From contig JBFMGO010000121.1 in NCBI GenBank assembly GCA_040752695.1, positions 1 to 17,285 on the forward strand: DNA of 17,285 nucleotides, in the 5' to 3' direction. A program made the position numbers and the translations under genes. This DNA is from a bacterium. Lineage in GTDB: Bacteria > SZUA-182 > DTGQ01. The notes beneath the pieces were generated by a model that saw only the letters and a list, made by a program, of their open reading frames with translations, was not told the origin of the DNA and did not search any database. This document shows, piece by piece, positions 663 through 17,285 of the stretch. Within the stretch, counting starts at the first letter, position 1; each line of letters starts with the position of its first letter.

Positions 663-1766
663 ATGATTCAAGAGGTTAACACCTTTTTAGAATTTCAGGA
701 AATTGAGCATGCATGGGACGATCTCTACCAGCGGGCAATGATCAGTAACCTTTTTCTGACTCACACTTGGCTCACGCTTTGGATCAAACACTTTGGGAAT
801 GGTCAGACCTTTGCTTTGTTGCATGTGCCAGACGGTGCCCCCAAACCGGAGGCTGGTGTCGTTTTAAAGCGGTACAACAAGTCGATAGGCTTTATCGAGA
901 ATGACTTTTCCGCTTATCCAGATTTTCTGGCAACACCTCAGTCGATTGGTGCCATCCAGGACTTACTGACCCATGTGAAAGGAAGGCATTTGCCATCCAA
1001 ATTGGTTTTTGCGGGAGTCAGTGCCAATTCCGTTTTGTGCAAAAACAGTGCGAGCCTGGCTAAAGATCAGTGGGTTCCGATCTTCAAATACCCTAGTCAG
1101 ATGCGGTCGATCCTGATTTCCGGTACCTTCGACTCTTATTTCAAATTGCAGGGAGCGAAGTTCAGATCAGAAACACGGCGAAAGGTCCATCGGGCGGAGA
1201 AAAATTTCCGGGTCGGATTAAGGACATTCTCCCACGGTAGAGAGAAGACAGAACTGTTTGAAATGGTGAGATTAATTGAGCAGGATTCATGGAAAGCCCG
1301 GATCGGATCGGACATTATCCACAACGAAAAGCAATTGGCCTTCTATGGCGATGTATTCGAGCGTTATGCAGAGCAGGACAAGGCAAGGATTTATGTACTC
1401 TATTTTAATGATCAGCCCGTTTCATTCATCTTCGGAATCCTGTTAGACCGTACGTATTATGCTCTTAAAACTTCATACAGGCTTTTCTACCGCGATTATT
1501 CACCAGGGCTTGTCTTATTTGCAAAAATCATTCAGTCACTCTTTGAGGAGAAAGAGGTAAAAAGGCTGGAATTCCTTGGTTCTGATGCCAGATGGAAGGA
1601 AGAATTTTCCAATTATCAGGAAGATTTTTGTACTCTTGAGCTTTACCCCATGGGCCTGAAATCGTTATCTTACAACATGCTCTACCTGTATATTCGCCCA
1701 CTCATCAAGAGGTTAAAAATCATAACCTTAATCAGAAAATTGCAGAGAAGATCAGAACATTCGTGA
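663..1766 (+). CDS. GNAT-family N-acetyltransferase, CelD/BcsL (Acetyltransf_6)-like
   Basis: 367-aa ORF. N-terminal 'WDDL...FLTHTWLTLW' segment, central 'KFRSETRRK' and 'SWK', C-terminal 'YSPGLVL...EFLGSDARWKEEF', all typical of this EPS-associated GNAT family. Confidence 0.8.
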   Translation: MIQEVNTFLEFQEIEHAWDDLYQRAMISNLFLTHTWLTLWIKHFGNGQTFALLHVPDGAPKPEAGVVLKRYNKSIGFIENDFSAYPDFLATPQSIGAIQDLLTHVKGRHLPSKLVFAGVSANSVLCKNSASLAKDQWVPIFKYPSQMRSILISGTFDSYFKLQGAKFRSETRRKVHRAEKNFRVGLRTFSHGREKTELFEMVRLIEQDSWKARIGSDIIHNEKQLAFYGDVFERYAEQDKARIYVLYFNDQPVSFIFGILLDRTYYALKTSYRLFYRDYSPGLVLFAKIIQSLFEEKEVKRLEFLGSDARWKEEFSNYQEDFCTLELYPMGLKSLSYNMLYLYIRPLIKRLKIITLIRKLQRRSEHS

Positions 1767-2815
1767 TGAACGGTTTCTATAAATTCAAGTGCAGGATCAA
1801 GCGGTTTGTCGTGCCTGTCCTGTTTCGCAGCGGTTATTATTCATGGCTTCTGCGAAAAGGAGGAAACACCAGCCGTTGTCTGATCCTGATGTATCACCGG
1901 GTTGGAGGCGATGAAGATAAGAGCCTGTATGGAATCAGTAAACAGAACTTCGAAAGGCAGATGCAGTTTTTGAGAGAGCACATGAGGCCGATTCCTCTCT
2001 CTTTTTTAGTCGACAGGCTGCAAAACCGCTCTCCTATTCCTCCAAAATCGGTAGTTGTCACTTTCGATGATGGGTATGCGGATAACTATTTCAATGCCTA
2101 TCCTGTTTTAAGAAAATACCGGATTCCGGCCACCATTTTTCTGGTGGCCGGCTATATCAGCACAGGCAAGCGATTCTGGTGGGATCAGTTGCGGGCCGTA
2201 GTCCAGCGGAATCCCAATTTGCCAACGGTTCTTGAAAAGGATTGCTTTCTTCCTCCCCGTGTCCTGGCCAGGTGGCTTTCGGGCGGGCCGCACAGCTACC
2301 AGGAACTGGCAGAATCCCTGATTGCCCATATATGGCGGAATCAGAATACCTGTCCGGACCACTGGATCGAGCTTTTGGGGAGAGGATTGGAGAAGGACCT
2401 TTCGACTGACGATTATGCTCCCCTGACCTGGGAGCAGGTCAAGGAAATGAGTCATCATGATCTTGAATTCGGCTCTCATACGGTCAGTCACCCCAATATG
2501 GTGCATCTTCCTTCGGAAGAGGTGGAAGATGAGTTGAGGATGTCGAAGAAGATTATCGAAAAGCACCTTGGCTGTCCGGTAGAAGGCTTTGCCTATCCCA
2601 TCGGGCAGTGCGAACACTATGACAACCGCATCAAGACGCTGGTGCACAAGGTAGGATTTCAGTATGCCTGTACAGCTCAGTTTGGCTGCATTTACCCGGA
2701 GAACTGGGACATCCTCTCCCTCAGGCGGATCCCTCCGCCGAACTCTTTACCCTGCTTTGTGCGGGATATCGGCTATTATTTAAGTCTTCCACCTCTGGAT
2801 GGTTCTGTGCGATGA
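1766..2815 (+). CDS. polysaccharide deacetylase (NodB/CE4 family)
   Basis: Motifs ILMYHRV, TFDDGY, FGSHTVSH and FAYPIG. ATG at 1766 overlaps the upstream TGA; GTG at 1763 is an alternative start. Confidence 0.92.
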   Translation: MNGFYKFKCRIKRFVVPVLFRSGYYSWLLRKGGNTSRCLILMYHRVGGDEDKSLYGISKQNFERQMQFLREHMRPIPLSFLVDRLQNRSPIPPKSVVVTFDDGYADNYFNAYPVLRKYRIPATIFLVAGYISTGKRFWWDQLRAVVQRNPNLPTVLEKDCFLPPRVLARWLSGGPHSYQELAESLIAHIWRNQNTCPDHWIELLGRGLEKDLSTDDYAPLTWEQVKEMSHHDLEFGSHTVSHPNMVHLPSEEVEDELRMSKKIIEKHLGCPVEGFAYPIGQCEHYDNRIKTLVHKVGFQYACTAQFGCIYPENWDILSLRRIPPPNSLPCFVRDIGYYLSLPPLDGSVR

Positions 2816-4083
2816 AGCGGATACTGATCATTTCGTACTATTATCCGCCTCTTTTGGATGTAGGGGCCTTGAGGGCTCTGGGGTTTTCCCGTTATTTGCC
2901 GGAGTATGGCTGGCAGCCCTATGTGGTTTCAGTTAAAAATCCCGATCCTGCTTACTGCCTGCTCGGAGAGGAATCGTTTCCCTCTCACGTGCAGGTTTCC
3001 TATACGCGTTCTTTAGTCAACCTGGCCCGGTTCAATGGGCTGGCCAACGGGTTCATGTCCCGGGTATCCAGGTTCCTGGGAAAGGATCATCTTCAGAATC
3101 TGGCGGATATCCTTTTCTTACCCGATATCTTCGTTGGCTGGGTCCCGCTTTCCTGCTGGACAGCCTACAGGCTTATCCGGAAATACCGAATCGAGGTTAT
3201 TTACGTTTCCGCCAAACCATTCAGTTCAACCCTGACCGGGACAATCCTGAAGCGGCTTACCGGCAAGTTCCTGATACTGGATTTCCGGGACCCGATATCT
3301 TTAGAGGCTATGGGAGAGAGTGAACCGAAGGAAAACCGTTTCTACTGGAGAACCATTCGCAGACTGGAAAAACTGGTGTTGAGCCAGACAGACTGGCTTT
3401 TAGTAACCAGCCGCAAGACTCAGGAGCGATACATCCACCTTTATCCCTTTCTCAAGGATAAGTGTTCGGTGATTTACAACGGCTTTTTGGATGAGCTTCT
3501 TCCTGCGGCGCATTCCTCTGCGGGCAGCCGGTTTTCCATTATCTATACCGGTAACTTCTATCCGACCCTCCCCGGAGCGGATATCTTTTTCGAAGGCTTA
3601 CATCAGGTTTTGGCCGAAGGTAAAATCCTCAGGGATAAAATACGGTTCTACTACTTTGGCGACAACGAGAAATGGTTTCACAGCATGAAAGTGAAATATC
3701 AGTTGCATGGAGTGATCCAACACTGTGGATACACGAACCGCAAAAGGGCATTGCAGCATATCGCCGACTCCTCTTTGTTTCTCTTAAGATCCAGAGGGGA
3801 TATGATCAGCGCCAAACTCTACGAGGCACTGGCCATCGGTAAACCCATCCTCTCTTTAGATTCTACCGACGAGGTCGCCCAGCTTATCAGGAACTACTCC
3901 TCGAACTTCTACCTTCTTTTTGCCGGAGATGGACCGGAAAAGGTGGCTGGAGCCATCCACTATGCCTACGAAAGGTGGGAGAAAGGGGACTGGCCGACTA
4001 TCCCGAACGAAGAGTATCTGGAGAGATTCAATAAACGGCGATTGACTCAGCAAATGGCTTCCGTTTTGGAAAGGGTTCGTTAA
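2812..4083 (+). CDS. glycosyltransferase family 4 (GT-B)
   Basis: N-terminal 'MKRILIISYYYPP...GALR', then 'DFRDP', 'IYNGF', 'IIYTG' and 'KLYEALAIGKPI'. ATGA coupling to the deacetylase stop. Confidence 0.88.
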   Translation: MKRILIISYYYPPLLDVGALRALGFSRYLPEYGWQPYVVSVKNPDPAYCLLGEESFPSHVQVSYTRSLVNLARFNGLANGFMSRVSRFLGKDHLQNLADILFLPDIFVGWVPLSCWTAYRLIRKYRIEVIYVSAKPFSSTLTGTILKRLTGKFLILDFRDPISLEAMGESEPKENRFYWRTIRRLEKLVLSQTDWLLVTSRKTQERYIHLYPFLKDKCSVIYNGFLDELLPAAHSSAGSRFSIIYTGNFYPTLPGADIFFEGLHQVLAEGKILRDKIRFYYFGDNEKWFHSMKVKYQLHGVIQHCGYTNRKRALQHIADSSLFLLRSRGDMISAKLYEALAIGKPILSLDSTDEVAQLIRNYSSNFYLLFAGDGPEKVAGAIHYAYERWEKGDWPTIPNEEYLERFNKRRLTQQMASVLERVR

Positions 4084-4086
4084 AGG

Positions 4087-4140
4087 GGGGCAGAGAATAG
4101 AGGAGGGGCAGGGAATAGAGAAGGAGCCGGGAATAGAGAT
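4087..4140 (+). repeat. 3 x 18-bp purine-rich tandem repeat at the GT4/flippase junction
   Basis: GGGGCAGAGAATAGAGGA / GGGGCAGGGAATAGAGAA / GGAGCCGGGAATAGAGAT. Confidence 0.85.
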
Positions 4141-5578
4141 TTCCGTCAGGCAAAAAGTTCGATCAGCCACCACCTGGTTAGCGGGGACAAGGCTGATCGG
4201 ACAACTTTTGACCATGGGTATTACCATTACCATCACCCGGCTTCTGGAACCAGCGGATTTCGGGCTTTTCGGAATGGCCAACCTGGTCATCTCCTTTTTG
4301 ACCCTGTTTGAAGGAATAGGGCTGGATGCGGCCATAATCCAGAACCAGGATCTGGGCCAGGAGGATCTGGACCGGGTTTTCTGGCTGATGGTTTCAGTCA
4401 ATACCGGCCTGTACGTGATAACCTTTTTCCTCGCTCCTTTCATGGCCGGGTTTTTCCGGGAGGGAAAACTGTCGGTCATGATCAGGATTCTCGGAATCAA
4501 TCTGATTCTGGCTTCTCTCTATGGAGTACCGTATAACCTGATGACCAGGGACCTGAGCTTTGATCACCGGTCCAAAGCGGAGCTGGTTTCAGGTGTGGGG
4601 CACAGCACGATCTGCCTGGCCATGGTATTGGCCGGATGGAAGGTCTGGTCGTTGATTTACAGCAGTCTGGCCACTCCGCTCATCATGATCGGCCTGATTT
4701 ATTATTACCGCAGGTGGACTTTCAGGGTTTGCTCTCCCTTAAGCAAAAAGTGCCGGGGACTTCTTCACTTCGGGAGTCAAATCATGCTTTCCCGGACCTT
4801 GTGGTATATTTATTCCAACTCCGATTTTCTCATAGCCGGGCGTATTCTGGGCAAGGAGGCCCTCGGCAATTATACCCTGGCCTTCGAGATGGCTTCTCTC
4901 CCTCTGGAAAAGGTGGTTTCACTGATTCCGCAAATCGCTTATCCCACCTTTTCTCAGGTCCAGAAGGAGGAAGAGAAGGTCCGGCACTACTATTTAAAAA
5001 CCATCCGGCTGGTGGCTCTGGTCGTCTTTCCCCTGTTTCTGGGGCTCTTCCTGGTGGCTCAGGATTTCATCCTGCTGGTTTTCACCGGCAAATGGTCAGC
5101 GGCCATTGAACCTCTCAGGATTCTGTGTCTCATGTCAATCCTTCGCTCCATGGCAGTATTGGGCGCTCCTTTGACCAACGCCCTTGGCAGACCGGGCATC
5201 GCCCTGTTCAACTCGTTTCTCTGCGCCCTTTCTTTGCCTGCCGCGTTTTGGGTAGGAGCCAGATCCGGTATCCGGGGAATCTCCCTTGCCTGGCTTTTCG
5301 TGTATCCGGTTCTTTTCCTTTTCATGACCTGGAATTCCACCCGCATTATTCACATCTCGGCCAAAGAGTATTGGACGAACCTCCTGCCCGTCATGGAGGG
5401 GAGTCTGGTCATGGCGATTTTTGTTTACGGCCTTAGATTATGGTTTTTGACGGATTTCGGGCCGTGGTTTCGCCTCATCCTCACCTGTCTGACCGGGGCT
5501 TTGGGATATCTGATTTTTTTATGGGTGGCTCACCGGTCTTTGCTGAAAGAGTTGTGGGAATTCGCGAGGAGAGACTGA
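4133..5578 (+). CDS. Wzx/WzxC-type polysaccharide flippase (MOP superfamily)
   Basis: Multi-TM protein with 'RLLEPADFGLFGMA', 'GLDAAIIQ' and 'NSDFLIAGRILGKEALGNY'. The frame is open upstream of the TTG at 4208 and encodes the family-like N-terminus 'EISVRQKVRSATTWLAGTRLIGQLL'. Start placed by inference at ATA 4133, 6 nt after AAGGAG. Confidence 0.88.
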   Translation: MEISVRQKVRSATTWLAGTRLIGQLLTMGITITITRLLEPADFGLFGMANLVISFLTLFEGIGLDAAIIQNQDLGQEDLDRVFWLMVSVNTGLYVITFFLAPFMAGFFREGKLSVMIRILGINLILASLYGVPYNLMTRDLSFDHRSKAELVSGVGHSTICLAMVLAGWKVWSLIYSSLATPLIMIGLIYYYRRWTFRVCSPLSKKCRGLLHFGSQIMLSRTLWYIYSNSDFLIAGRILGKEALGNYTLAFEMASLPLEKVVSLIPQIAYPTFSQVQKEEEKVRHYYLKTIRLVALVVFPLFLGLFLVAQDFILLVFTGKWSAAIEPLRILCLMSILRSMAVLGAPLTNALGRPGIALFNSFLCALSLPAAFWVGARSGIRGISLAWLFVYPVLFLFMTWNSTRIIHISAKEYWTNLLPVMEGSLVMAIFVYGLRLWFLTDFGPWFRLILTCLTGALGYLIFLWVAHRSLLKELWEFARRD

Positions 5579-5584
5579 AAAATT

Positions 5585-7447
5585 ATGCCTGGATTGTTTG
5601 GCTTTTATCAAAAAAAATCCGGCATTCAGGAAAGCTCGCAAGAGCTCCTGGACCGGATGAAAAACCACATGCAGCGCAGATCCAGTCGAATCTGCGACAC
5701 GGTGGCCCTCGACCGGTTCGCTGCGGGCCGCCTGACTCTGGGTACTCTGGACCCGTCACCCCAGCCTGTGGTCAGTCCGGACAAGCGGTACCTGTTGTTT
5801 TTCGACGGGCAGATTTATGAATACCAGTCCCTGAAGCGCGACCTGAAGGAGCGCGGATATCTCTTTCCCCGGGATGCGGAAGCTGAGTTGATCATGAACC
5901 TTTTTCTTGACCAGGGGATCGGATTTGCCCAGTACTTAAAGGGGATTTTTGTGGTGGTCGTGTATGATCGAGTCACCCACACGCTCCTTTTGGCCAATGA
6001 CCGCTATGGCCTGTTTCCTCTCTACTGCAAGGATTCACCTGACCGGTTTTCCTTTTCTTCGGAACTCAAAGGACTGCTTCCCGTTATGGGGGAAGACAGG
6101 AGGATCGACAAGAGCGCATTGTGCGATTTTTATAATTTTCAGTTTATCATGGGGGACAAGACCTTCCTAGCCGATATCAGACTTCTTCCCTACGCCACGG
6201 TCATGGAGGTGAGAAAAGATGGAATCAGCCAGCGCCGGTACTGGAACTACCCGTATCAGAACACTGAGCGGGACCCCGGCCCCGATAGTCTTATTGAGGA
6301 AGGTCTTACGCTGATCAAAAAGGCGGTCCAAAACCAGTTGAAGCCGGACCTTAAGGTCGGCATCCCTTTGAGCGGAGGGTTGGATTCCCGGCTGTTGGGG
6401 ACAATCGCCTCTTTGGACCAGGCGCGGGTGAATTTTTTCCATGCAGGCAGCAATCCCCGCTATCTGGAGACGCAGGCAGCGCAAAAGGTGTGCGGCTTCC
6501 TGGATGGAGAATGGCACTTTTTTGACCTTCGTGCCCAGGACGTAACCACCCTGATTCCGGAAGTGCTCAGCCTCAACGACAGCCATTTTTCCTGCCGCCA
6601 GAGCTGGCTCCTCGGTATTGCCAAGGCAGCGGCCAGGGAAGGAAGGGCGAATATCCTCCTTGACGGCTATTGCTTCGATGTGCAACTGGGGTCCACTTTT
6701 TCGTCCAGCGGCAAAAGCTCCTCCTCCGGCTTCTCTCCTGAAGAGAGGATCAGGATGGCGCGGGATACCTATTGCGGATTTTATCCGGAATTTGCCCGGC
6801 AGTTTTTTACCCCTGAATTTTCCCGCTCTCTCATCGGGGTAACGGCTGAAAATATCCGGATTATGAGCGAGGAGCGCATCCATGAGCCTATGGACAACTG
6901 GCTCCAGTATTTCTGTTTTGTCAACCGGGCCAGGAGGTTCACCATCGGCAACCCCTGGGTAAACCGGAATTATATCGAGAGCGCCTTCCCCTACATGGAT
7001 TACGACCTGTTCGACTTCTGCCTGCGCCTGCCCCCTCACTACCGGCAAAAGAGCTGGCTGTACAGGCAGATTTTTCTACGCTACTTCCCGAATCTGTCCA
7101 GAATTCCCTGGAGCAAGACCGGCCTGCCCCTGCACCGGTATCAGACCGGTATTTCATGCCTGCGAGACATAGTCAAAGGGTCGGGATACTACCTCAATCG
7201 CCTGAGCAGGGGGCAGTGGGAATTGGGCAATTCGGATGTAAATCCCAGCCGCCGGTTTCGCAAGGACCCCGCTTATCGCCGCTTTTTCCTGAACATTCTA
7301 AAGGATAAGCGCACCTTTAGCAGGGGTATGGTTTCCAGGCAGGGAATCGAAAACCTGATCCGGTATCTTGATTCCGGAAGGAATTATTTTGACCTGGTAG
7401 AGGCCATCGTTACCGTGGAATTTTTCTTCCGCTCCTTCATGGATTGA
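5585..7447 (+). CDS. asparagine synthetase B-like amide ligase with degenerate glutaminase domain
   Basis: Ntn-domain segments 'QPVVS', 'FDGQIY', 'DRYGLFPLY' and 'SSELKGL'. Synthetase PP-loop 'LSGGLDSR', plus 'FPYMDYDL'. N-terminus is MPGLFG rather than MCGI. Confidence 0.88.
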   Translation: MPGLFGFYQKKSGIQESSQELLDRMKNHMQRRSSRICDTVALDRFAAGRLTLGTLDPSPQPVVSPDKRYLLFFDGQIYEYQSLKRDLKERGYLFPRDAEAELIMNLFLDQGIGFAQYLKGIFVVVVYDRVTHTLLLANDRYGLFPLYCKDSPDRFSFSSELKGLLPVMGEDRRIDKSALCDFYNFQFIMGDKTFLADIRLLPYATVMEVRKDGISQRRYWNYPYQNTERDPGPDSLIEEGLTLIKKAVQNQLKPDLKVGIPLSGGLDSRLLGTIASLDQARVNFFHAGSNPRYLETQAAQKVCGFLDGEWHFFDLRAQDVTTLIPEVLSLNDSHFSCRQSWLLGIAKAAAREGRANILLDGYCFDVQLGSTFSSSGKSSSSGFSPEERIRMARDTYCGFYPEFARQFFTPEFSRSLIGVTAENIRIMSEERIHEPMDNWLQYFCFVNRARRFTIGNPWVNRNYIESAFPYMDYDLFDFCLRLPPHYRQKSWLYRQIFLRYFPNLSRIPWSKTGLPLHRYQTGISCLRDIVKGSGYYLNRLSRGQWELGNSDVNPSRRFRKDPAYRRFFLNILKDKRTFSRGMVSRQGIENLIRYLDSGRNYFDLVEAIVTVEFFFRSFMD

Positions 7448-7473
7448 GGATGGGATGGTGGGCTGTATCTCTC

Positions 7474-7522
7474 CTGACTTTTGGCTTTTGACTTCTGACT
7501 TTTGACTTCTGAATCCTGACTT
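7474..7522. repeat. 7 x 7-bp tandem repeat (consensus YTGACTT)
   Basis: CTGACTT TTGGCTT TTGACTT CTGACTT TTGACTT CTGAATC CTGACTT, with more degenerate units to about 7536. Confidence 0.9.
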
Positions 7523-7572
7523 CTTACTCCTTAACTGATATAACAGAGCACGATACAAAAAGGGACCCTGGC

Positions 7573-8706
7573 CTGATCAGTCTGGTAGCAGTAGGAGACG
7601 TTTGTCTTGGAATGGGGGTCTTAGATTCCATCCGGCACTTTGGTCCGGATTTTCCCTTTGCTCCGTGCAGCCCGATCCTCCGGCAGGGAGATCTGGTTTT
7701 TGGCAATCTGGAAATGGTTCTGTATGACAGGGGAACACAGCTCAGAGAAAGTCGGATTGATTTTAAGGTTCCCCTGCCATATGGCGCCGGGCTTGGCCGG
7801 GCTGGTTTTCAGGTACTCAGTGTAGCCAATAATCATATCCTGGACTTTGGCACTCCCGCCTGCCAGGATACCTTGAAGTTCCTGCAAAAGCAGGGGATAC
7901 AGACTGTCGGGTGCGGGAGGGACCTTAAAGAGGCCAGAAAACCCGCCATATGCATGGTCAGGGGGCAGCGGGTCGGTTTTTTAGCCTATTCAGATGATGT
8001 CGGGCAATCCAAAGGACCGCATGGGCCCTGTGTGGCACCGATCAAGAAGAAAAATCTCCTTGAGGATATCCGGGCACTTCGACAGCAGGTTGACCTGATT
8101 ATTATTTCCCTGCATGCAGACCTTGAATTTGTAGCCTATCCGGCACCCTGGCGGGTCCGGCTTTGCCGCCAGCTCATCGAGGCCGGGGCGGATCTGATCC
8201 TTCAGCACCACCCGCATGTGCCGCAAGGGGTAGAGAGATACCGCCATGGGATGATCATCTACAGCCTGGGAAGCTTCGTTTTTCCCGTTGCGGGAAACGA
8301 TTACGCAGATCATCCCTGGACGGACCAAAGTTTCATTCTGCGCGTATGGATGGACAGGCGGGGGATCGCAAGTGCGGAGTTTCTGCCGGTACGGATCAAT
8401 CGCTTCAATCAGCCTGTGCCCCTTAGTGATGAGGATCAGCGGAGAGAATTTCTTCGTTACCTCCGCCAGATCTCTTTACCTCTTCACCGGCCTGACCTTC
8501 TGGACCGGTTCTGGCTGCAATCCTGTATAGCCGCTTTCGGTACCCACTGGTCCTGGATAAAGGAAGTGTACTGGGAGAAAGGGTGGGCGGGAGTGGTTCA
8601 ATGCCTGGAATTTCTGGCCAGGACGTCCGAAAACCGGCGCTGGCTGCTCGGCCTTTTATCAGGCATGGCACGATTTGGGCTCAGGGATGGCTTCAGGCAC
8701 AAATGA
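7573..8706 (+). CDS. CapA/PGA_cap family metallophosphoesterase-fold protein
   Basis: Motifs GNLE, ANNHILDFG, SLH, HHPHVPQGVE and YSLG. The first conserved motif 'LVAVGDVCLG' is encoded in frame upstream of ATG 7612, so the start is placed by inference at CTG 7573, 7 nt after AAGGGA. Confidence 0.85.
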   Translation: MISLVAVGDVCLGMGVLDSIRHFGPDFPFAPCSPILRQGDLVFGNLEMVLYDRGTQLRESRIDFKVPLPYGAGLGRAGFQVLSVANNHILDFGTPACQDTLKFLQKQGIQTVGCGRDLKEARKPAICMVRGQRVGFLAYSDDVGQSKGPHGPCVAPIKKKNLLEDIRALRQQVDLIIISLHADLEFVAYPAPWRVRLCRQLIEAGADLILQHHPHVPQGVERYRHGMIIYSLGSFVFPVAGNDYADHPWTDQSFILRVWMDRRGIASAEFLPVRINRFNQPVPLSDEDQRREFLRYLRQISLPLHRPDLLDRFWLQSCIAAFGTHWSWIKEVYWEKGWAGVVQCLEFLARTSENRRWLLGLLSGMARFGLRDGFRHK

Positions 8707-10010
8707 TGCTCTCCTTCTACCTCTGGACCCTGGTTAGTATAGGCCGTCCTCAGGATGTCCTGCCGGAGCTTCTGTTCCATCTCCATCCGGGCAAGATTGC
8801 TGCTCTTTTTACCCTTTTGCTCTATTTTTTAAATGTCAAAAAGAAGGTTAACCAAAATATTTTCCAGACACCGGAGGTTGTGGCCTTTTTATTTTTTTGT
8901 CTCGTTATGACCGCTTCCGGCTTGTGTGGTGTATACCCTCGACAGAGCTGGGAATTTTTGAAGACCGACTTTTGCAAGCAAGTGGTTTATTGCCTGGTCT
9001 TAAGCCGTATCATAGTCACATCCAAAGATATCAAAAAGCTGGCCTGGGTAATTATTTTAAGCGCGGTTATCATCTCCTTAGCCAGTATCAGCGTCAGAGC
9101 TCAGACCGACCGGGTCAGTGTCGGCACCATGTATGATCCCAATGATCTGGCCATGGTTCTGGTTATATCCTTTCCCTTTGTCCTTTACTTCTTCCTTGAG
9201 GAAGGCGGCTTCAGAAAAATCTTTCTGGCCGGAGCCGGGGTCGTCATTTTATTTGCCTTCCTGCTTACCCAGTCGAGGGGGGGATTTCTCGGCCTTATGG
9301 CCATTATCCTGACCTTTGCAGTAAGCGGCAGTTCCCTGAAGGGCAAGGCCGGGCAGGGTAAGGTTGAGAAGGGTCGGGACGAGGGGCAAAAATGGTCGAA
9401 GAGAGTGGTTGTCCTCCTTCTGACGCTTGCCCTGGTCGGCCTGGCCAGCAATCAATACTGGCAGCGCATCAAGACTATCCTGTCACGCGAGGACCGCGGC
9501 TCTATGAGAGAGGTGATCTGGGGGCGGGGGCTGAAACTGTTTGCGGAAAATCTCTGGCTTGGGGTGGGAGTGAATTGCTTTTCCACGGCCTACGGGCGGG
9601 CGCTGGAAAAGGGCAGGTTCGGTAAAGTCGGCAATGTCTATGACCGGTCCTGGAGAGCAGCTCACAACAGTTACCTCCAGGTGGGGACCGAGACTGGCAT
9701 TTTCGGCCTTTTGCTTTTCCTCTTTCTGCTGGGCCTGAGCATAAAAAATTTCAGGGAAACCAAAATTCTGGCTCTGGCCGGTTCCGATTCACAAACCCGG
9801 CGCCTTTCGGAGATGTATTTACTGGGATTAATCGGCTTTATGGTCTGCGGTTTTTTTCTCTCTCAGGCCTATTCGATCTTTCCTTATCTTTTTCTGGCTG
9901 TTTCTGGCATTCTGCGCCGCCAATTCCTTAAGGAGGTAAAAAAGAATGAATTCGATCCCGAGGGTAGAGGATTGGGGATTGGAGAATCAACAGGGCATTC
10001 TCCTGGTTGA
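8703..10010 (+). CDS. O-antigen ligase / Wzy-like polymerase family membrane protein
   Basis: Many TM segments; motifs 'RPQD', 'DPNDLA', 'TQSRGGFLGL' and 'AHNSYLQVGTETGIFG'. ATG 8703 overlaps the CapA TGA (ATGA) and is preferred over GTG 8583. Confidence 0.87.
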   Translation: MMLSFYLWTLVSIGRPQDVLPELLFHLHPGKIAALFTLLLYFLNVKKKVNQNIFQTPEVVAFLFFCLVMTASGLCGVYPRQSWEFLKTDFCKQVVYCLVLSRIIVTSKDIKKLAWVIILSAVIISLASISVRAQTDRVSVGTMYDPNDLAMVLVISFPFVLYFFLEEGGFRKIFLAGAGVVILFAFLLTQSRGGFLGLMAIILTFAVSGSSLKGKAGQGKVEKGRDEGQKWSKRVVVLLLTLALVGLASNQYWQRIKTILSREDRGSMREVIWGRGLKLFAENLWLGVGVNCFSTAYGRALEKGRFGKVGNVYDRSWRAAHNSYLQVGTETGIFGLLLFLFLLGLSIKNFRETKILALAGSDSQTRRLSEMYLLGLIGFMVCGFFLSQAYSIFPYLFLAVSGILRRQFLKEVKKNEFDPEGRGLGIGESTGHSPG

Positions 10011-11292
10011 CGGGGCGAGTTGTCTGGACTTGACCAGGGACTTTGGTACCCCGCTTCATGTAGTTCATGAAAAGAGGCTTTTAAATAACATAAAACGGTT
10101 TAAGGACGCCTTCAGTGGCTATCAGCCGGGAGTGAACGTTTTCTATTCATACAAATCCAATGGCATTCCCGGTGTATTACAGCTTATCCACCGGGGAGAG
10201 AAAGAGGAAGAGGGTCTGGGTGCCGAGGTCATTTCCCCTTATGAGCTGTGGCTGGCCCTGCGGATGGGAATCGCTCCCCGGCGAATTGTCTACAACGGCA
10301 TAAATAAGCCTCTGGAAAGCCTGAAGCTGGCTCTCAAACTCAAAATAAGAATCAACGCTGATTCCATCGAGGAGGTGAAGCAGATTGACACAGAGGCTAA
10401 AAAGCTCGGCAGAACTTGTGAGATAGGGATTCGGGTCTGTCCACGGGCGGGCTGGAACTCCCACTTTGGTCTGAGCCTGGCTGATGGCCAGGCCGAGCAG
10501 GCCGTAGACTACATCAGCCGATCCTCACACCTTTTATGTACAGGATTGATGTGTCATCTCACCACCAGGGCCACTGACGCCGAAACACATGCACTTGCCT
10601 GCTTCGACCTTTTACGGTTTGCCTCAAAGATTCATCGAAGGTATGGCATAACCATTCAGTCCCTCGATCTCGGAGGGGGGTTTGGAGTGCCCACCGTCAA
10701 GGGATTCTCCCACTGGGAAGCACTGCGATACCGGCTGTGGAACCGTCCTCCCCGCAAGCCCGACCCCTCACGCTGTCAGCCGATCGAGGATATGGCCAAA
10801 AGAATCATTTCCGCTCTTTTTAAAGGATGTGAGCGGTTCGGACTCAACCCCCCCGTTCTTTGCCTTGAGCCGGGCAGAATCATTACCAGCGACGCTCAAG
10901 TCCTGCTGCTGACGGTCGGAGGGGTCAAACAACGAGGGGAAGGCCGGCTGTTTGCACTCACCGATGGGGGAAGATTCAATATTAATTACCCCCTGGAACA
11001 TGAATATCATGCCGCTTTTGTGGCTAACAAGCTGAATGATCCACTCCGACAGAATTATTTTGTGGTTGGCAGGCTTTGCTCTCCAGGCGATTGGGTCTAC
11101 CGGAATATTCACCTCCCCTGCCTGCAGGCACAAGATATACTGGCTATTATGGATTCCGGAGCCTACTTTACCCAATTCTCGACCAATTTTTCCTATCCGC
11201 GCGCTGCGGTCGTGGCTGTACGGGATGGAAAGGCCCGCGTCCTGCGGCACAGGGAGACGTATGAATGCATGGTTAGCATGGATCTCATGTGA
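9946..11292 (+). CDS. PLP-dependent decarboxylase, LysA/diaminopimelate decarboxylase fold (divergent paralogue)
   Basis: 'FGTPLHV', PLP lysine in 'YSYKSN', 'DLGGGFG', 'EPGR', 'GRLCSPGD' and 'GAY'. Strong SD TAAGGAGGT at 9929-9937. Confidence 0.87.
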   Translation: MNSIPRVEDWGLENQQGILLVDGASCLDLTRDFGTPLHVVHEKRLLNNIKRFKDAFSGYQPGVNVFYSYKSNGIPGVLQLIHRGEKEEEGLGAEVISPYELWLALRMGIAPRRIVYNGINKPLESLKLALKLKIRINADSIEEVKQIDTEAKKLGRTCEIGIRVCPRAGWNSHFGLSLADGQAEQAVDYISRSSHLLCTGLMCHLTTRATDAETHALACFDLLRFASKIHRRYGITIQSLDLGGGFGVPTVKGFSHWEALRYRLWNRPPRKPDPSRCQPIEDMAKRIISALFKGCERFGLNPPVLCLEPGRIITSDAQVLLLTVGGVKQRGEGRLFALTDGGRFNINYPLEHEYHAAFVANKLNDPLRQNYFVVGRLCSPGDWVYRNIHLPCLQAQDILAIMDSGAYFTQFSTNFSYPRAAVVAVRDGKARVLRHRETYECMVSMDLM

Positions 11293-11349
11293 GGAGTAAG
11301 CTTTTGAGGAATAAACTCTTGTGGAGTAAGCTTTTGAGGAGTAAGACTT
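11290..11349 (+). repeat. 4 x 15-bp tandem repeat, each with an SD-like core
   Basis: TGAGGAGTAAGCTTT / TGAGGAATAAACTCT / TGTGGAGTAAGCTTT / TGAGGAGTAAGACTT. Confidence 0.9.
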
Positions 11350-11354
11350 CATAG

Positions 11355-12554
11355 ATGCGGGTTTTGATCACGAATGCCCGCAACCGCATCGCCTATGCTG
11401 CCCTGAGGAGCCTTGGTGAGCGGGGTATCCCGGTCTGCACGGCAGATTCCATACCCTGGGCCATGTGCTTTTCCTCTCGCTACTCAAGGAGCTGTTTCCG
11501 CTATCCCTCCCCTTTTCAGGAGCCAGAGCGGTGCATTGCCTCCCTGATCGAGAACGGCCGCAGGGAACGCTGTCAGTTCCTTTTGCCTACCTACGAGGAA
11601 ACCTTTCTCATATCCAAGTACCAGGACAAATTGAAGGAGCATTTTCGCCTGGTCGTTCCGGAATATGAAAAGATCCTGACAGTTCATGACAAGCAAAGCC
11701 TCTCCAGGCTGGCCGGGAAGCTGGGCATTCCTGTCCCCAGGACCGCCTTTCTCACCGAGCATCCTTCGCAGCACCCCTGGCTGACAGAAGCCCGTTATCC
11801 AGTCTGGCTCAAACCCCGGCAGGGCGGAGGAGCCTGGGGAATCGAGAAGGTAGCTTCCTACGATGAACTGCTTTTGCGGTGGATCAAGTCCGGCGATCTT
11901 CCCTATGGGCTTCCGCCTGGCCGCTTCCTGGTGCAAGAGCACATCCCTGGTGAGATTTATTGCGTGGCCATGCTGTTTCGGCAGGGGAAAATGCGGGCGC
12001 GATTTACCTATCGCCAGGTAAGGAATTACCCCCTGCAGGGAGGCGTGGCTACACTGCGGGTCAGTGACCGGCAAAGTGAAGCCGAAGGGTGCTTGCAGCG
12101 GCTCATGGAGGCTCTGCAATGGCACGGCGTGTGTCAGGCGGATTTCGTTGTGCATAAGGAAACGAAGGTCCCCTACCTTTTGGATGTCAATCCGCGATTC
12201 TGGAGCGCTACGCACCTGGCCGTCATTTCGGGTGTTGATTTTCCCTACATGGTATACCGCATAGCTGCGGATGGGGATACAGACCCGGTCATGGATCATC
12301 CTGCCGGTATCCATTCCCGGTGGTTCTGGGGAGAAGTGCGGGCCTTCTGGGCGTGCTTTCGCCAGCCCGGACAAAAGATCAGGGCACTGAAAACCTATGG
12401 CCGTATCGGGAAAGCTTACAGCAATTTCGATGACCTGTGTCTTCGTGACCCCCTGCCTCCTCTGGTGTTCTTAGGGGATGGCCTCAGGCGGATACTCAAG
12501 CAGCGCTCCCTTACCCTGCGGCCTCATGATTCCCTGGAAGGAGTATGGGAATAA
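11355..12554 (+). CDS. ATP-grasp carboxylate-amine ligase
   Basis: 'RSLG', 'DKQSL', 'YPVWLKPRQGGGAWG', 'VQEHIPG', 'LLDVNPRFW' and 'GVDFPY', matching the ATP-grasp family found in polysaccharide loci. Confidence 0.87.
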   Translation: MRVLITNARNRIAYAALRSLGERGIPVCTADSIPWAMCFSSRYSRSCFRYPSPFQEPERCIASLIENGRRERCQFLLPTYEETFLISKYQDKLKEHFRLVVPEYEKILTVHDKQSLSRLAGKLGIPVPRTAFLTEHPSQHPWLTEARYPVWLKPRQGGGAWGIEKVASYDELLLRWIKSGDLPYGLPPGRFLVQEHIPGEIYCVAMLFRQGKMRARFTYRQVRNYPLQGGVATLRVSDRQSEAEGCLQRLMEALQWHGVCQADFVVHKETKVPYLLDVNPRFWSATHLAVISGVDFPYMVYRIAADGDTDPVMDHPAGIHSRWFWGEVRAFWACFRQPGQKIRALKTYGRIGKAYSNFDDLCLRDPLPPLVFLGDGLRRILKQRSLTLRPHDSLEGVWE

Positions 12555-12598
12555 ACGGTGAAACGGGTGGGTGAAACGGGTGAAGGAGTGAAAGGGTG
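12553..12598 (+). repeat. degenerate tandem repeat of mostly 8-9-bp units ending in GTG
   Basis: AAACGGTG / AAACGGGTGGGTG / AAACGGGTG / AAGGAGTG / AAAGGGTG. The last two units supply the SD and GTG start of the next gene. Confidence 0.7.
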
Positions 12599-13831
12599 AG
12601 AAACAATGGCCAAGGTAATCAGGGGAGGGTCAGGGTGATGCAACTGATTGCTCCCAACACCCTGGGAGGCGCAGAGCGGGTGGTCCTTTCGATTCAGCAA
12701 TGGCTGGGAAGGGGAGGGGAGGATGGCGAAGTAAAAAGAAGAGAAAATGGTGAAGCAAGAGGGAATGAGACAAGAGAGGAAGAGAACGGAGAATATTTCT
12801 CATCGACTCTGGGCGTGTTTTCCTGGGTTAAAAAACCCGATAACGCCTTTTTGCGCGAGGTGAGCAGCCGGGGCTACCCCCATGTCATCTTTCCCATGCG
12901 CTTTGCCTTCGACTGGGCCAACCTGGTTCAGCTTTTCCGCTCCCTCAAGGCGAACCGGATTCAGCTTCTCCACACCCATGGTTATCGCTCGGATATCCTG
13001 GGGCTGATCTGCGCCAGAGCGGCCCGGATTCCGGTAGTCACCACCTTGCATGGCTGGACTGCCATGGATTGGAAAGTACGAAGGTACGAGGATGTTCAGC
13101 GGTGGGGATTGCCTTTCTTCTCGGCCATTATCGCTGTATCGGAAGAGATCAAAGACCGGCTCATTCGGCAAAGAGGGATTGATCCCGGCAAGATCACGGT
13201 TCTTCAAAATGCGGTCAGTCTTCCTCATGAAGCCGATGGATGGGCTCAGCCTGCGGACCGGGGGCAGATCAGGCGGCAATTCGACTGCGACCCGGATGCT
13301 CCTGTGATTGGATTTGTCGGCCGCCTGAGCCCGGAAAAAAATCCTGCCGATTTACTCAGGGCGACGAGCCTTCTGGCTCGCCGGATACCCAATATGCTGT
13401 GCTGGATAGTCGGAGAGGGGCCGGAGCGCTCAGCATTGGAAAATCAGGCCATGAGCCTTGGCATCACGCAAAGGGTCCGGTTCCTTGGCTTTCAGGCGCA
13501 GATAAGCCGCATCTACAAGGCCCTGGATGTACTGGCCATCACCTCCAGCACCGAAGGAACCCCAATGGCGCTCCTTGAGGCCATGTCATGGGGCATCCCG
13601 GTGGTTTCCACGCGGGTGGGAGGAATAGGCGCTCTTTTAGAACATGGCGTGGATGGCTTTTTGGTAAATCCGGGGGATACGGCCGGGCTGGTCAGAAGCC
13701 TGGAAAGAGTGCTGAGTGACCCGGAACTGGCCCACGAAATGGGAAAAACAGCCCGCGAAAAGGTGCGGGTGGAATTCGCCATGGCCGGATGGATTCAGAA
13801 AATCCGCAAGGTGTATCGCCGGTGCCTTTGA
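12596..13831 (+). CDS. glycosyltransferase family 4 (GT-B)
   Basis: 'GGAERVV', 'HTHGYRSD', 'TLHGW', 'VGRLSPEKN' and the EX7E motif 'EGTPMALLEAM'. GTG start 7 nt after AAGGAG; a start near 12635-12638 is also possible. Confidence 0.92.
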   Translation: MRNNGQGNQGRVRVMQLIAPNTLGGAERVVLSIQQWLGRGGEDGEVKRRENGEARGNETREEENGEYFSSTLGVFSWVKKPDNAFLREVSSRGYPHVIFPMRFAFDWANLVQLFRSLKANRIQLLHTHGYRSDILGLICARAARIPVVTTLHGWTAMDWKVRRYEDVQRWGLPFFSAIIAVSEEIKDRLIRQRGIDPGKITVLQNAVSLPHEADGWAQPADRGQIRRQFDCDPDAPVIGFVGRLSPEKNPADLLRATSLLARRIPNMLCWIVGEGPERSALENQAMSLGITQRVRFLGFQAQISRIYKALDVLAITSSTEGTPMALLEAMSWGIPVVSTRVGGIGALLEHGVDGFLVNPGDTAGLVRSLERVLSDPELAHEMGKTAREKVRVEFAMAGWIQKIRKVYRRCL

Positions 13832-14103: not shown

Positions 14104-14580
14104 GTGAAAAAAATCGTCTACATTGAAACGACTATTCCCAGTTTTTACTATGAAGTCAGGACTGAACCGGAGATGGCTGCACGCAGGAATTGGACGAGAG
14201 AATGGTGGGACAGCCAACGCCACTATTATCAACTTGTAACAAGTCTGGCAGTTATAGAAGAGCTGGAAAATGGAGATTATCCGAATAAAGAACAGGTATT
14301 GCAGATGCTTACAGATGTTCCAATCCTGAGTATTCCTATGGAAATCCGCGACGTTGTTGATACATATATAGCACGCAAGCTCTTACCTGCCAATCCTAAA
14401 GGTGATGCACTTCATCTGGCTTTAGCATCTTTTTATAGCTGTGATTTTCTGCTTACATGGAATTGTCAACACTTGGCAAATGCGAATAAATTTGCTCACA
14501 TAAGACGGATAAATACGCTCTTGGGCCTATTTGTCCCAATATTAACAACGCCGTTTGAACTTTTATCACAAGAGGAATAA
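14104..14580 (+). CDS. PIN-domain (VapC-like) toxin/ribonuclease
   Basis: 'VYIETTIPSF', 'VIEEL', 'DALHLALA' and 'LLTWNCQHLAN' carry the PIN-family acidic/conserved motifs. AT-rich gene. Confidence 0.88.
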   Translation: MKKIVYIETTIPSFYYEVRTEPEMAARRNWTREWWDSQRHYYQLVTSLAVIEELENGDYPNKEQVLQMLTDVPILSIPMEIRDVVDTYIARKLLPANPKGDALHLALASFYSCDFLLTWNCQHLANANKFAHIRRINTLLGLFVPILTTPFELLSQEE

Positions 14581-14585
14581 AGAAA

Positions 14586-14747
14586 ATGAAAAGTGATCCT
14601 GTTATTGATCGGATAAGGGAGGTGAGACGTAAAATATCGGAGAAATGCGATCATGACACGACAAAGCTGATACAGCATTATCAGGAGTTAGAAAAAAAAA
14701 CCACCCGTACGTTTTTCCAAAAAGCCGTTGAGAGGACCACTAAGTAA
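14586..14747 (+). CDS. 53-aa protein, probable antitoxin partner of the PIN toxin
   Basis: Not in the ORF track. Reads MKSDPVIDRIREVRRKISEKCDHDTTKLIQHYQELEKKTTRTFFQKAVERTTK, starts 5 nt after the PIN stop with GAGGA upstream. It resembles the small 'DPxxxExRxxR' proteins I recall downstream of this PIN subfamily. Confidence 0.7.
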   Translation: MKSDPVIDRIREVRRKISEKCDHDTTKLIQHYQELEKKTTRTFFQKAVERTTK

Positions 14748-14994
14748 CTTGACCAGTTACCATACTGATGTTGGTCAGGGAGCACCTCATATACGCTATT
14801 TCCCTTTATCCCTGCACAAGAGATGAGTTTTCCCCGGCCTGATCTCCCCTTTGCTCATCCAGGATATCGAGGCCCTCATCAAAATGATAGTAAGTGAAAC
14901 CAGATTGAGGGAGAAATACTGAACATGATGATTTTATACTATTTCCTGAGTTTATTCGATACTATTTCCCAAATTATTTTGTTAGATTTCCTTA

Positions 14995-15024
14995 TTGTAA
15001 AAGTGAGCACGATCAGGGTAGAAT
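14995..15024 (+). promoter_or_regulatory. candidate sigma-70 promoter for the 15080 gene
   Basis: TTGTAA-N18-TAGAAT, about 55 nt upstream of the start codon. Confidence 0.4.
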
Positions 15025-15079
15025 AATTAAGAGAGAAGTCGTAAACTGAGCACAAGGTTAGAGATGAGGTAGTTTGGTT

Positions 15080-15643: not shown

Positions 15644-16846
15644 ATGAACATCCTGTTTCTTTCGACTACTATTCCTTACCCCCCCATTGACGGGCATTCG
15701 CAAAGGACTTACTATCTTTTAAAACATTTGGCGGAGCGCCACCGGATCCATTTGATCGGGTTCGTGAAAAAGCCCGATGATTGGGGATCGGCACAGATAC
15801 TCCGGGAATTTTGCGCCGGTGTGTATCCGTTCGTTCTTCCTGAAGATGTTTCCCGGCTGGATCTGGGACTTTCTCTGGCCTGCAATCTTTTTTCCTCCGA
15901 TCCCTTTGTGGTCCGGAAATATTTTCATCCCCAAACCCGGCTCACTCTGGAAAAGATTTTCCAAAAAGATCGGATACACCTTATGCACTGCGATATGCCT
16001 AATCTGACTGTTTATGTCAACAGCCGCAATGGTCCTCCTGCCATTACGGTTCATCACGATCTGGAATGGACGCTTATGGAACGCAGGGCAGACATGGAAT
16101 CAAACTTTTGCAAAAAGTGGTACTTTTCCCGGCAGGCTCAAAGGTGGCAGCGTTATCTGGCCAGGATAGAGGCTAAGACCCGGCTTCATGTGGTGGTTTC
16201 CGACCTGGATAGACAGCGCCTGGAGGAGATCTCTCCCCTGCATATACCGGTTCGTGTAGCACCTAACGGCGTGGACGTGGAATACTTTCAACCCCGGCCT
16301 TGCGTACCGGTGGAAAAAACGATTTTATTCTTGGGGGGAATGCATGTTTTTCAGAATGCGGACGGAGTAGAATACTTTTTGAAAAGCGTCTGGCCTCTGA
16401 TTCAGGATATGGAAAAAGGGGTGAAGTGCCTGATCATAGGACAAAATCCATCCAGGCAGCTCCAAAACCTGGCTTCAGAAACAGGGGCCTGGATGCCCGG
16501 ATTTGTCGAGGATGTGCGGCCCTTCTTGGCCAGTGCCGGCCTCATGGTAGTGCCGATCCGCATTGGCAGCGGAACGCGCCTCAAGATTTTATCAGCCATG
16601 GCCATGGGTAAGGCCGTGGTTTCCACCTCTGTCGGCTGCGAGGGAATCGATGCCCGGGACGGGGAGCATCTGTTGGTGGCGGACACCCCTTTGGATATGG
16701 CCCGCCAGGTGGTGGAGGTGCTGCGAAACCCTGCCCTTCAAAAACGGCTGGGAGAGAACGGCCGCAGGCTGGTTGAAGAAAAATACTCCTGGGCCAGAAT
16801 CGCCCGGATCATGGAAGATGTTTACCAGGAGGCGGTGGAGGGATAA
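15644..16846 (+). CDS. glycosyltransferase family 4, resembling the sugar transferases of PEP-CTERM-associated EPS loci
   Basis: 'MNILFLSTTIPYPPIDG', 'PNGVDVEYF', 'GFVEDVRP', 'VVPIRIGSGTRLKI' and 'GCEGI'. Confidence 0.9.
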   Translation: MNILFLSTTIPYPPIDGHSQRTYYLLKHLAERHRIHLIGFVKKPDDWGSAQILREFCAGVYPFVLPEDVSRLDLGLSLACNLFSSDPFVVRKYFHPQTRLTLEKIFQKDRIHLMHCDMPNLTVYVNSRNGPPAITVHHDLEWTLMERRADMESNFCKKWYFSRQAQRWQRYLARIEAKTRLHVVVSDLDRQRLEEISPLHIPVRVAPNGVDVEYFQPRPCVPVEKTILFLGGMHVFQNADGVEYFLKSVWPLIQDMEKGVKCLIIGQNPSRQLQNLASETGAWMPGFVEDVRPFLASAGLMVVPIRIGSGTRLKILSAMAMGKAVVSTSVGCEGIDARDGEHLLVADTPLDMARQVVEVLRNPALQKRLGENGRRLVEEKYSWARIARIMEDVYQEAVEG

Positions 16847-16927: not shown

Positions 16928-17285
16928 ATGAATCTCAATGGCAAAGTCATCATCATTACCGGAGCCAGCAAAGGTATAGGTAGGGCCGCTGCCTGCCTTT
17001 TGGCTGAAAAGGGAGGGCAGGTCGTCCTGGCTGCCCGCGATGGAAGCGCACTTCAAGAGGTCAGCCGCAGCATCAAAAGGGGCAGGGGTATTTCCCTGGC
17101 AGTGTCCTCCAACGTACGGCGTGAAGGCAGCGTCAAAGCCCTGGTCAACCAGGTGATCAGTCGGTTCGGCCGCATAGATGTCCTCATTAATAACGCAGGC
17201 GTATGCGTTTACGGGCCTGTGACTCAGACTACGCTGGATGAGTGGGAACAGGTCATGGAAACCAATTTGAAAGGGGTTTTCCTCT
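16928..17285 (+). CDS. short-chain dehydrogenase/reductase (SDR), truncated by the window end
   Basis: Not in the ORF track. Reads MNLNGKVIIITGASKGIGRAAA...FGRIDVLINNAGV...TNLKGVFL, with TGxxxGIG and NNAG motifs; open to the window end. Confidence 0.92.
   Translation, partial: MNLNGKVIIITGASKGIGRAAACLLAEKGGQVVLAARDGSALQEVSRSIKRGRGISLAVSSNVRREGSVKALVNQVISRFGRIDVLINNAGVCVYGPVTQTTLDEWEQVMETNLKGVFL

Follow-up and report, generated by a model that had tools for sequence, protein, structure and literature searches.

The window analysed here is a stretch of 17,285 nucleotides that makes up the entire contig C121 of a bacterial genome (6.0 Mb, 96.6% complete). Its forward strand carries a glycan gene cluster in which a fold-III pyridoxal phosphate (PLP) decarboxylase is followed by an ATP-grasp ligase. 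Comparisons across genomes suggest that the widespread unit is this decarboxylase-ligase pair, which recurs in many unrelated bacteria, and not the six-gene set in which it lies; the pair forms a conserved core that is apparently uncharacterised. We consider it likely that the cluster gives its glycan an amide-linked decoration derived from an amino acid, and probable, with somewhat less assurance, that the decarboxylase and the ATP-grasp act on one and the same substituent. In the picture that we favour, which is tentative and falls a little short of probable, the cluster is Wzx-dependent and its repeat unit is aminoacylated in the cytoplasm, carrier-free, before flipping.

An original prediction, drawn from the window alone, had joined a GNAT, a deacetylase, an AsnB-like enzyme, a CapA-fold protein, the decarboxylase and the ATP-grasp in one undescribed pathway. 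The association of decarboxylase, ligase and glycan genes stood, and the six-enzyme pathway did not: the full set, with CapA and an AsnB lacking Cys1, is confined to close relatives and is therefore best seen as a local assembly.

The decarboxylase and its ligase partner

The decarboxylase keeps its PLP machinery (K70, H204, EPGR at E308-R311, C378 and GAY/Y407), and its fold matches 2p3e (Z 45.7, rmsd 1.6 over 396 residues). Its top matches in sequence and fold are diaminopimelate (DAP) decarboxylases, and public records label its D. vulgaris homologue as such; both points speak for a second DAP decarboxylase that supplies lysine, a reading to which we give hardly any credence. The score against TIGR01048 (LysA) is 242.1 bits, below the cut-off of 297.9, and a true lysA, 27% identical, lies on contig C12 in the order argH-lysA-dapF-dapA-dapB (neighbours named by inspection). 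LysA's C-E and RPxLY are replaced by C-S-P-G-D and YPLEHEY, with loss of the Glu and the Arg. In a FastTree analysis of 83 rows, the 66 family rows form one clade (support 99), separate from six LysA-like rows, one TIGR03099 member and one sister clade, with long-branch warnings among the reference rows and TIGR03099 represented by a single member on a long branch. A check against housekeeping LysA had been proposed with the original prediction; the score below cut-off, the lysA on C12 and the separate clade rule that identity out.

None of the 161 family open reading frames (ORFs) places an acid (Glu or Asp) immediately behind the catalytic Cys, as LysA does in its C-E. In LysA, this acid and the Arg of RPxLY bind the distal end or amine of DAP, and the C-S/T motif presumably means that the distal-amine site has been lost. 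The decarboxylase matches the pattern C-(T/S)-P-x-D, found also in BtrK (CTPED) and SbnH (CTPKD), which act on acylated amino acids, and its fold matches include SbnH-citryl-diaminoethane and N-citrylornithine decarboxylase structures. An Arg stands two residues before the catalytic Cys in the window's clade and its sister. The family looks like an apparently uncharacterised clade, mostly glycan-linked, that lacks the substrate residues of LysA, is not the housekeeping enzyme, and appears to be misannotated as DAP decarboxylase in databases. Close homologues (L082:6214-7986 and L083:10001-11818; P0002 and P0003) have in-frame insertions that add up to ~90-145 residues, lie largely within a single loop and are repetitive in part.

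A seed alignment of 60 homologues gave 412 matches in genomes and 510 in metagenomes, and neighbourhoods were gathered for the best 80 from each. These 160 loci were merged at 70% identity to 84, of which 65 had 1.5 kb or more of flank on either side and were kept, and 19 were dropped; the named loci carry 14 phylum labels. An ATP-grasp gene was found in 42 of the 65 (adjacent in 33), either an ATP-grasp or a PaaK-like ligase in 53, a glycan gene in 46, and O-ligase, GT4 and ATP-grasp jointly in 20. With 5-kb flanks (48 loci), ATP-grasp, either ligase and a glycan gene were present in 32, 40 and 36, respectively. In the window's clade and its sister a ligase accompanies the decarboxylase in 27 of 29 loci, and O-ligase, decarboxylase and ATP-grasp are consecutive in 10. 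The usual neighbour of the ATP-grasp is a GT4 related to TIGR03088, while one related to TIGR03087 directly follows that GT4 in L001 and L081. When partner type was mapped on the decarboxylase tree (60 of the 65 rows labelled), 12 changes were counted against a shuffled mean of 29.9, with 0 of 300 shuffles as low, which indicates clustering and not co-evolution. The co-occurrence proposed earlier was therefore recovered for the decarboxylase with the ATP-grasp and with glycan genes, whereas the full combination of MPG-type AsnB, CapA, decarboxylase and ATP-grasp appeared in the window's own clade only.

As had been predicted, the window holds no gene for an acyl carrier protein (ACP) or acyl-CoA ligase (ORF listing, Pfam). 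By a crude motif screen, an ACP-like ORF occurs in only 3 of the 160 loci, and on that ground an ACP-dependent route was rejected; two ACP queries matched nothing in the genome, the fatty-acid ACP included, and are uninformative. In a separate group of loci, 13 of 17 with a divergent GNAT also have a PaaK-like ligase, and these two may form an alternative route that activates small acids.

In the ATP-grasp, K113, K153, the GGG loop, Q194 and D277-x-N279-P-R281 are conserved across 34 homologues. Its fold is nearest 2pn1 (Z 28.6) and then PylC (Z 26.2), and it may resemble the D-aspartate ligase (Aslfm) family. Among 301 genomes of G046's phylum, with 5-6 candidates scored per genome, the ATP-grasp family was present in 42 and the core decarboxylase in one, the centre genome itself. 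Ten further genomes gave weaker decarboxylase matches; of the eight that were read, five belonged to a PqqD-linked sister clade and three to other contexts. Enzymes that make sugar amines flank the ligase in 10 of the 30 best ATP-grasp loci (CE4 deacetylase in 8, DegT in 2), FemAB occurs in 2, and a decarboxylase was not seen in the 58 of 90 flanking ORFs that were scanned. These reverse controls indicate that the decarboxylase is dependent on a ligase context, but that the ligase is independent of the decarboxylase. Members of the ATP-grasp family also lie beside a GT2, RadC, TatC or radical SAM gene (L206, L207, L210, L211, L212, L214, L216).

Other settings of the decarboxylase were also seen. 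The sister clade has a fixed operon (L177:7451-12181, L178, L191, L192, L194, L195, L197; Pfam on L177 and L191) of a small PqqD-family protein, an ATP-grasp, a decarboxylase with a CMNID-type motif, a urea-transporter/M23 fusion and further conserved ORFs; it may serve peptide modification, or the small PqqD-family protein may act as a carrier. A clade with the motif CSPED (L003, L007, L085, L099, L102, L108, L124, L133) comes with an S-adenosylmethionine (SAM) methyltransferase and often a 550-aa protein. In Myxococcus, Corallococcus and Pyxidicoccus (Myxococcaceae, L046-L080), a GT2-decarboxylase arrangement occurs with a convergent ATP-grasp, offering a second cultured test system.

The gene cluster around the pair

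Each gene named in the original prediction was confirmed by Pfam on the + strand, and the cluster goes past position 12554, with two more GT4s and an SDR inside the window. The features are as follows:

663..1766, + strand: FemAB-like double GNAT (Acetyltransf_6; PF13480, E 2e-24)
1763..2815, + strand: CE4 polysaccharide deacetylase (PF01522, E 4e-29)
2812..4083, + strand: GT4 glycosyltransferase (Pfam)
4208..5578, + strand: Wzx/MOP flippase (PF13440, E 5e-74)
5585..7447, + strand: AsnB-like amide synthetase, glutaminase degenerate (Pfam, residues)
7573..8706, + strand: CapA/PGA_cap metallophosphoesterase-fold protein (PF09587, E 1e-59; non-ATG start proposed)
8703..10010, + strand: Wzy_C / O-antigen-ligase-family membrane protein (PF04932, DUF5935)
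9946..11292, + strand: fold-III PLP decarboxylase (Pfam, structure matches, tree, residues)
11355..12554, + strand: ATP-grasp carboxylate-amine ligase, PylC/2pn1-like fold (Pfam, fold, residues)
12596..13831, + strand: GT4 related to TIGR03088 of the XrtA system (Pfam; 177 bits, cut-off 409)
15644..16846, + strand: GT4 related to TIGR03087 of the XrtA system (262 bits, cut-off 317)
16928..17285, + strand: SDR, truncated at the contig end and resuming on contig C45 (Pfam)

The genes are co-oriented, with spacings of -65 to about 125 bases, and form a putative operon, in agreement with the coupling described earlier. C45 carries the continuation (GT4, an AsnB with Cys1 intact, GT4, GT2) in the same order as G002, a genome of the same genus; the C121-C45 join relies on this synteny, and a sequence overlap was not found. 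Gene order is kept in both of the two other genomes of the genus, and all nine genes up to 12554 are in fixed order among relatives whose proteins are 58-76% identical. All 8 genes tested, CapA included, have a dN/dS of 0.09-0.20 against the single genome G002, with dS near saturation, which points to purifying selection on the cluster. The decarboxylase is present in the same two genomes of the genus and in none of three further genomes from the family. A flippase, a polymerase/ligase and glycosyltransferases, as expected of a Wzx/Wzy-type cluster, are in the window (Pfam), while a priming transferase, Wza, Wzc or exosortase is not; priming-transferase homologues lie on other contigs. Scans for promoters and terminators gave counts in line with chance (18 vs 14.4 and 27 vs 22.2).

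A profile of nine GNAT homologues matches a TIGR03019-type FemAB profile over 287 columns and both domains (probability 98.7%); the GNAT itself was not listed for TIGR03019 in the family scan and gave no useful match to the PDB. It is a candidate VimA-like transferase of aminoacyl or acyl groups to a sugar amine. The deacetylase has a PgaB/IcaB-like arrangement with no hydrophobic signal segment by hydropathy, and shows LMYH, TFDDGY, HTVSH and AYPIG, which we take to be deacetylase motifs. The glutaminase domain of the AsnB-like protein is degenerate, as predicted, at two sites: Cys1 is Pro (MPGLFG), and NGEIYN is DGQIYE, in which the oxyanion Asn is Asp. The same MPGLFG/DGQIYE is found in L001, L081, L082 and L083, and MPGLYG in G002. 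Because Cys1 and the oxyanion Asn are missing while the ATP loop SGGLDS is intact, this enzyme should need an external amine; the Cys1-intact paralogue on C45 could cover plain -NH2 amidation. The flippase scores 248.8 bits against NF007773 (cut-off 273), its frame is open upstream of TTG 4208, and the N-terminus is longer in G002; the true start is probably near 4114. The Wzy_C/O-ligase protein has 8 hydrophobic segments and scores 103 bits against TIGR03097 (cut-off 188), so it appears related to the exosortase-A-associated ligase. By hydropathy, the modifying enzymes are free of signal-like segments, apart from a borderline one in CapA's first strand, which suggests that these enzymes are cytoplasmic.

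CapA, to which the original prediction had assigned no role, is a candidate MslH-type L/D epimerase as judged from its residues. CapA proteins have been proposed as epimerases (PMC8179263), and the catalytic residues of MslH are given in PMC10406935. The only PDB matches of the window protein are MslH entries, with two short aligned stretches and low overall similarity, and it scores 67 bits against NF038314 (MslH-type), below the cut-off of 700. It keeps the positions matching MslH Glu44, Asn87, His88, Asp91, His259 and His295, with His261 changed to Asp. Both MslH dyads, His88/Asp91 and His295/Asp11, have counterparts: H88, D91 and H215 are aligned, whereas Asp11 is equated with D9 by the N-terminal GD motif only, beyond the aligned stretch. 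The same MslH-like motifs also occur in non-glycan CapA homologues. Since the AVGD motif precedes ATG 7612, the start must lie upstream of that codon; relatives start just before the motif, and we propose CTG at 7573. CapA homologues are present in 38 of the 301 phylum genomes. Among 20 outside CapA loci, drawn from the stronger of 44 matches, one lies within 6 kb of a glycosyltransferase and none adjoins an AsnB, and these controls indicate that CapA is a local recruit. A conserved pair of Cys-less AsnB and CapA elsewhere was rejected on the same 0 of 20, and the six-enzyme set as a widespread system on this result together with CapA in 2 of the 65 decarboxylase loci. CapA and an MPG-type AsnB were found together only in L001, L081, L082, L083 and G002. 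The CapA of L001 has a 35-residue insertion.

Intergenic tandem repeats with periods of 7-21 lie at 4087-4139, 7471-7531, 11290-11345 and 12557-12599, and two of these tracts sit just 5' of genes without a canonical start codon. A low-GC insert at 14104-15277, between two GT4 genes, holds a PIN-domain gene and a 67-aa ORF like an antitoxin-like ORF of G002; it is absent in L001. Upstream of the cluster in G001 (L173:16542-19244) is a secreted protein with a cohesin/dockerin tail, which has 40 matches in the window's genome (C160, C124, C159 and others), the best mostly to the tail.

A proposed route, its rivals and a possible exosortase link

In the favoured route, the CE4 enzyme would strip an N-acetyl group to give a free sugar amine. 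The ATP-grasp would turn the side-chain carboxyl of Asp or Glu into an acyl phosphate for coupling to this amine, and the decarboxylase, needing a free alpha-amine, would remove the alpha-carboxyl to leave a beta-alanyl or 4-aminobutyryl arm with a terminal primary amine. This would be the BtrJ/BtrK order, performed on the sugar or just before coupling. The direction of coupling was chosen because the ligase family accompanies deacetylase or DegT genes and an alternative PaaK-like/GNAT route exists; the exact order and the substrate class, for which the substrates are inferred, are held more loosely than the picture as a whole. As lineage-specific add-ons, the FemAB-like GNAT might add or cap an aminoacyl group, the Cys-less AsnB might link an organic amine or an amino acid to the carboxyl of a uronate, and CapA might epimerise an N-acylated terminal residue from L to D; these three may also add further or separate substituents.

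Several observations weigh against this route. The loci are not phylogenetically independent, and their genes were labelled by hidden Markov models built from clusters of the same loci. Within the fetched flank, 19 of the 65 loci have no glycan gene and 12 no ligase. In the window's clade and its sister, only 9 of the 29 loci have a deacetylase or DegT nearby, so that in many of them the sugar amine would come from elsewhere. Sequence identity to the closest ATP-grasp structures is only 14-21%, CapA homologues in other settings lack a glycan link, and the C-S/T motif, although it implies loss of the distal-amine site, is compatible with several substrates. One decarboxylase clade is mostly paired with a methyltransferase and not with a ligase. 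In the nearest sister clade, these two enzymes are found next to PqqD and a urea-transporter/M23 gene, with nothing to tie them to a glycan, which means that the pair is also capable of other chemistry.

One rival is an order in which the decarboxylase acts first, turning a free amino acid such as serine or phosphoserine into an amine with which the ATP-grasp or the Cys-less AsnB amidates a uronate, as in the capsule of C. jejuni. PMC11800379 describes amidation of glucuronate with serinol-P or ethanolamine-P by the ATP-grasp domain of Cj1438. A small substrate without a distal amine also fits the C-S/T motif, the Arg that precedes the catalytic Cys by two residues might bind a phosphate or carboxylate, and the methyltransferase-paired clade would resemble an ethanolamine-to-choline route. 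However, Cj1438 is TupA-like, whereas the TupA family is absent from the four Pfam matches of the window ATP-grasp and from its fold-search list (a direct comparison was not made), and the fold is nearest 2pn1/PylC. Most members of the ligase family have no decarboxylase partner, and they are often found next to deacetylases; a UDP-sugar dehydrogenase is near in only 8 of the 65 loci. We judge this order unlikely.

The C-T-P-x-D motif of SbnH, the SbnH and N-citrylornithine decarboxylase structures among the fold matches, and the two distinct carboxylate-activating enzymes of the operon would also suit an order of the siderophore type (SbnH/FslC). Here a glycan carboxyl would be joined to the side-chain amine of lysine, ornithine or diaminopropionate, decarboxylation would give a diamine amide, and the Cys-less AsnB would cross-link. 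Any AsnB is near in only 17 of the 65 loci, many of them with Cys1 intact, and the modifiers look cytoplasmic, a location in which it is difficult to see how repeat units would be cross-linked before they are flipped. We hold such an order to be quite improbable.

The cluster may instead be a mosaic of modules that were acquired independently, each giving a substituent of its own (Vim-like aminoacylation, AsnB amidation and a decarboxylase/ATP-grasp arm), with CapA perhaps unrelated to the glycan. The uneven presence of the genes across the 65 loci (AsnB in 17 as above, GNAT in 12, deacetylase in 12, CapA in 2), the single glycosyltransferase near the 20 outside CapA homologues, and the PIN gene and other inserts that break the cluster in the window and in G002 fit this reading. 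The fixed order of nine genes and the low dN/dS, including that of CapA, run against it, and we regard it as rather unlikely; it is compatible with the core of the favoured route.

The genome has four exosortase and seven PEP-CTERM matches, with a canonical XrtA-type locus on C56 (labels partly by inspection). Of 25 genomes that carry the window-type decarboxylase, 20 have an exosortase (14 of 17 clusters, and 13 of 14 labelled Thermodesulfobacteriota), compared with 9 of 25 for other decarboxylase clades and 104 of 301 in the phylum background. The two sets of 25 come from 50 of 80 genome loci of our choosing, with one unpublished genome among the nine, and the association is confounded by phylum and kinship. 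Within the window's clade and its sister, 5 of the 29 loci have an exosortase no more than 10 kb away, against 0 of the 36 others. On D. vulgaris plasmids, the ATP-grasp, the decarboxylase (39.5% identical), a GNAT and a PaaK-like ligase adjoin prsK and, in strain DP4, lie ~11 kb from xrt. The pair might build an amine-ended arm on a lipid-linked glycan that is the exosortase nucleophile for attaching PEP-CTERM proteins, like the seryl/glycyl sugar for type IX cargo. We think this improbable: the pair is in 1 of the 301 sampled genomes and rare among exosortase genomes, so that it could provide only one linker variant.

If the favoured route is true, amine-ended substituents that alter surface charge are predicted, and it may bear on what exosortases attach proteins to. 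D. vulgaris Hildenborough, which is cultured and genetically tractable, carries the pair (DVU_RS16185/16190), so the proposal is directly testable.

Comparison with known systems

The combination of an ATP-grasp and a fold-III decarboxylase resembles the BtrJ/BtrK/BtrI system of butirosin, in which BtrJ takes part in building the side chain. BtrK, which has the PDB title L-glutamyl-[BtrI ACP] decarboxylase, shares C-T-P-x-D with the window decarboxylase. In contrast, the two are 23-24% identical, the exosortase-associated, BtrK-like family TIGR03099 lies outside the clade of the window decarboxylase (108 bits, cut-off 478), and the window has no ACP or AMP ligase gene. If true, the pair would represent a carrier-free version of butirosin-type side-chain chemistry on surface glycans.

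XrtA/PEP-CTERM loci are similar in that window proteins resemble several of their families (TIGR03019, 03097, 03099, 03108, 03006, 03087, 03088), but every window protein is under the family cut-off and exosortase is absent from the window. No publication on this decarboxylase clade with its ligase was found in the literature searched, which omits most subscription papers; a 2009 amidoligase survey may already note such neighbourhoods.

The HS:2 capsule of C. jejuni, for which Cj1436 serves as a decarboxylase, is another parallel. An ATP-grasp makes an amide on the growing glycan and PLP enzymes supply the amine (Cj1438, Cj1435; PMC11800379), whereas its TupA-like ATP-grasp is fused to a GT2 and accompanied by a phosphatase, neither of which is in the window. 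This precedent for uronate amidation, together with the deacetylase, FemAB-like and AsnB enzymes of the Wbp/Vim pathway (PMC7468200), makes the word "undescribed" in the original prediction too strong.

In the Wbp/Vim pathway of Porphyromonas gingivalis and Tannerella forsythia (VimE, VimA, WbpS), a CE4 deacetylase, a FemAB-like transferase and an AsnB-family enzyme put an amino acid and an amide on an amino sugar (PMC7468200). The window similarly begins GNAT-deacetylase-GT4, with the deacetylase adjoining the FemAB-like transferase; the likeness to VimA and VimE is at the level of family matches. It differs in that wbpA/B/E/D-like genes are not in the window by Pfam; the C45 continuation has an oxidoreductase-like ORF. 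WbpS is glutamine-dependent, whereas the window AsnB lacks Cys1 and the Cys1-intact AsnB is on C45. The main text of PMC7468200, as far as it was covered, has no decarboxylase or ATP-grasp, and its supplements gave no text matches, Fig. S7 being a picture that may show the D. vulgaris locus. The authors also point to comparable genes next to exosortases, in D. vulgaris among others, and offer speculation about a connection with exosortase.

Compared with MslH and other CapA epimerases (PMC10406935 and PMC8179263), the window CapA keeps both His/Asp dyad positions and most metal ligands; it differs at His261, which is Asp, and lasso or poly-glutamate synthase genes are absent from the window. 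More generally, ATP-grasp and Fem ligases are D- and L-amino-acid ligases (PMC2922099), and amide-linked amino acids are known parts of O-antigens (PMC7685785).

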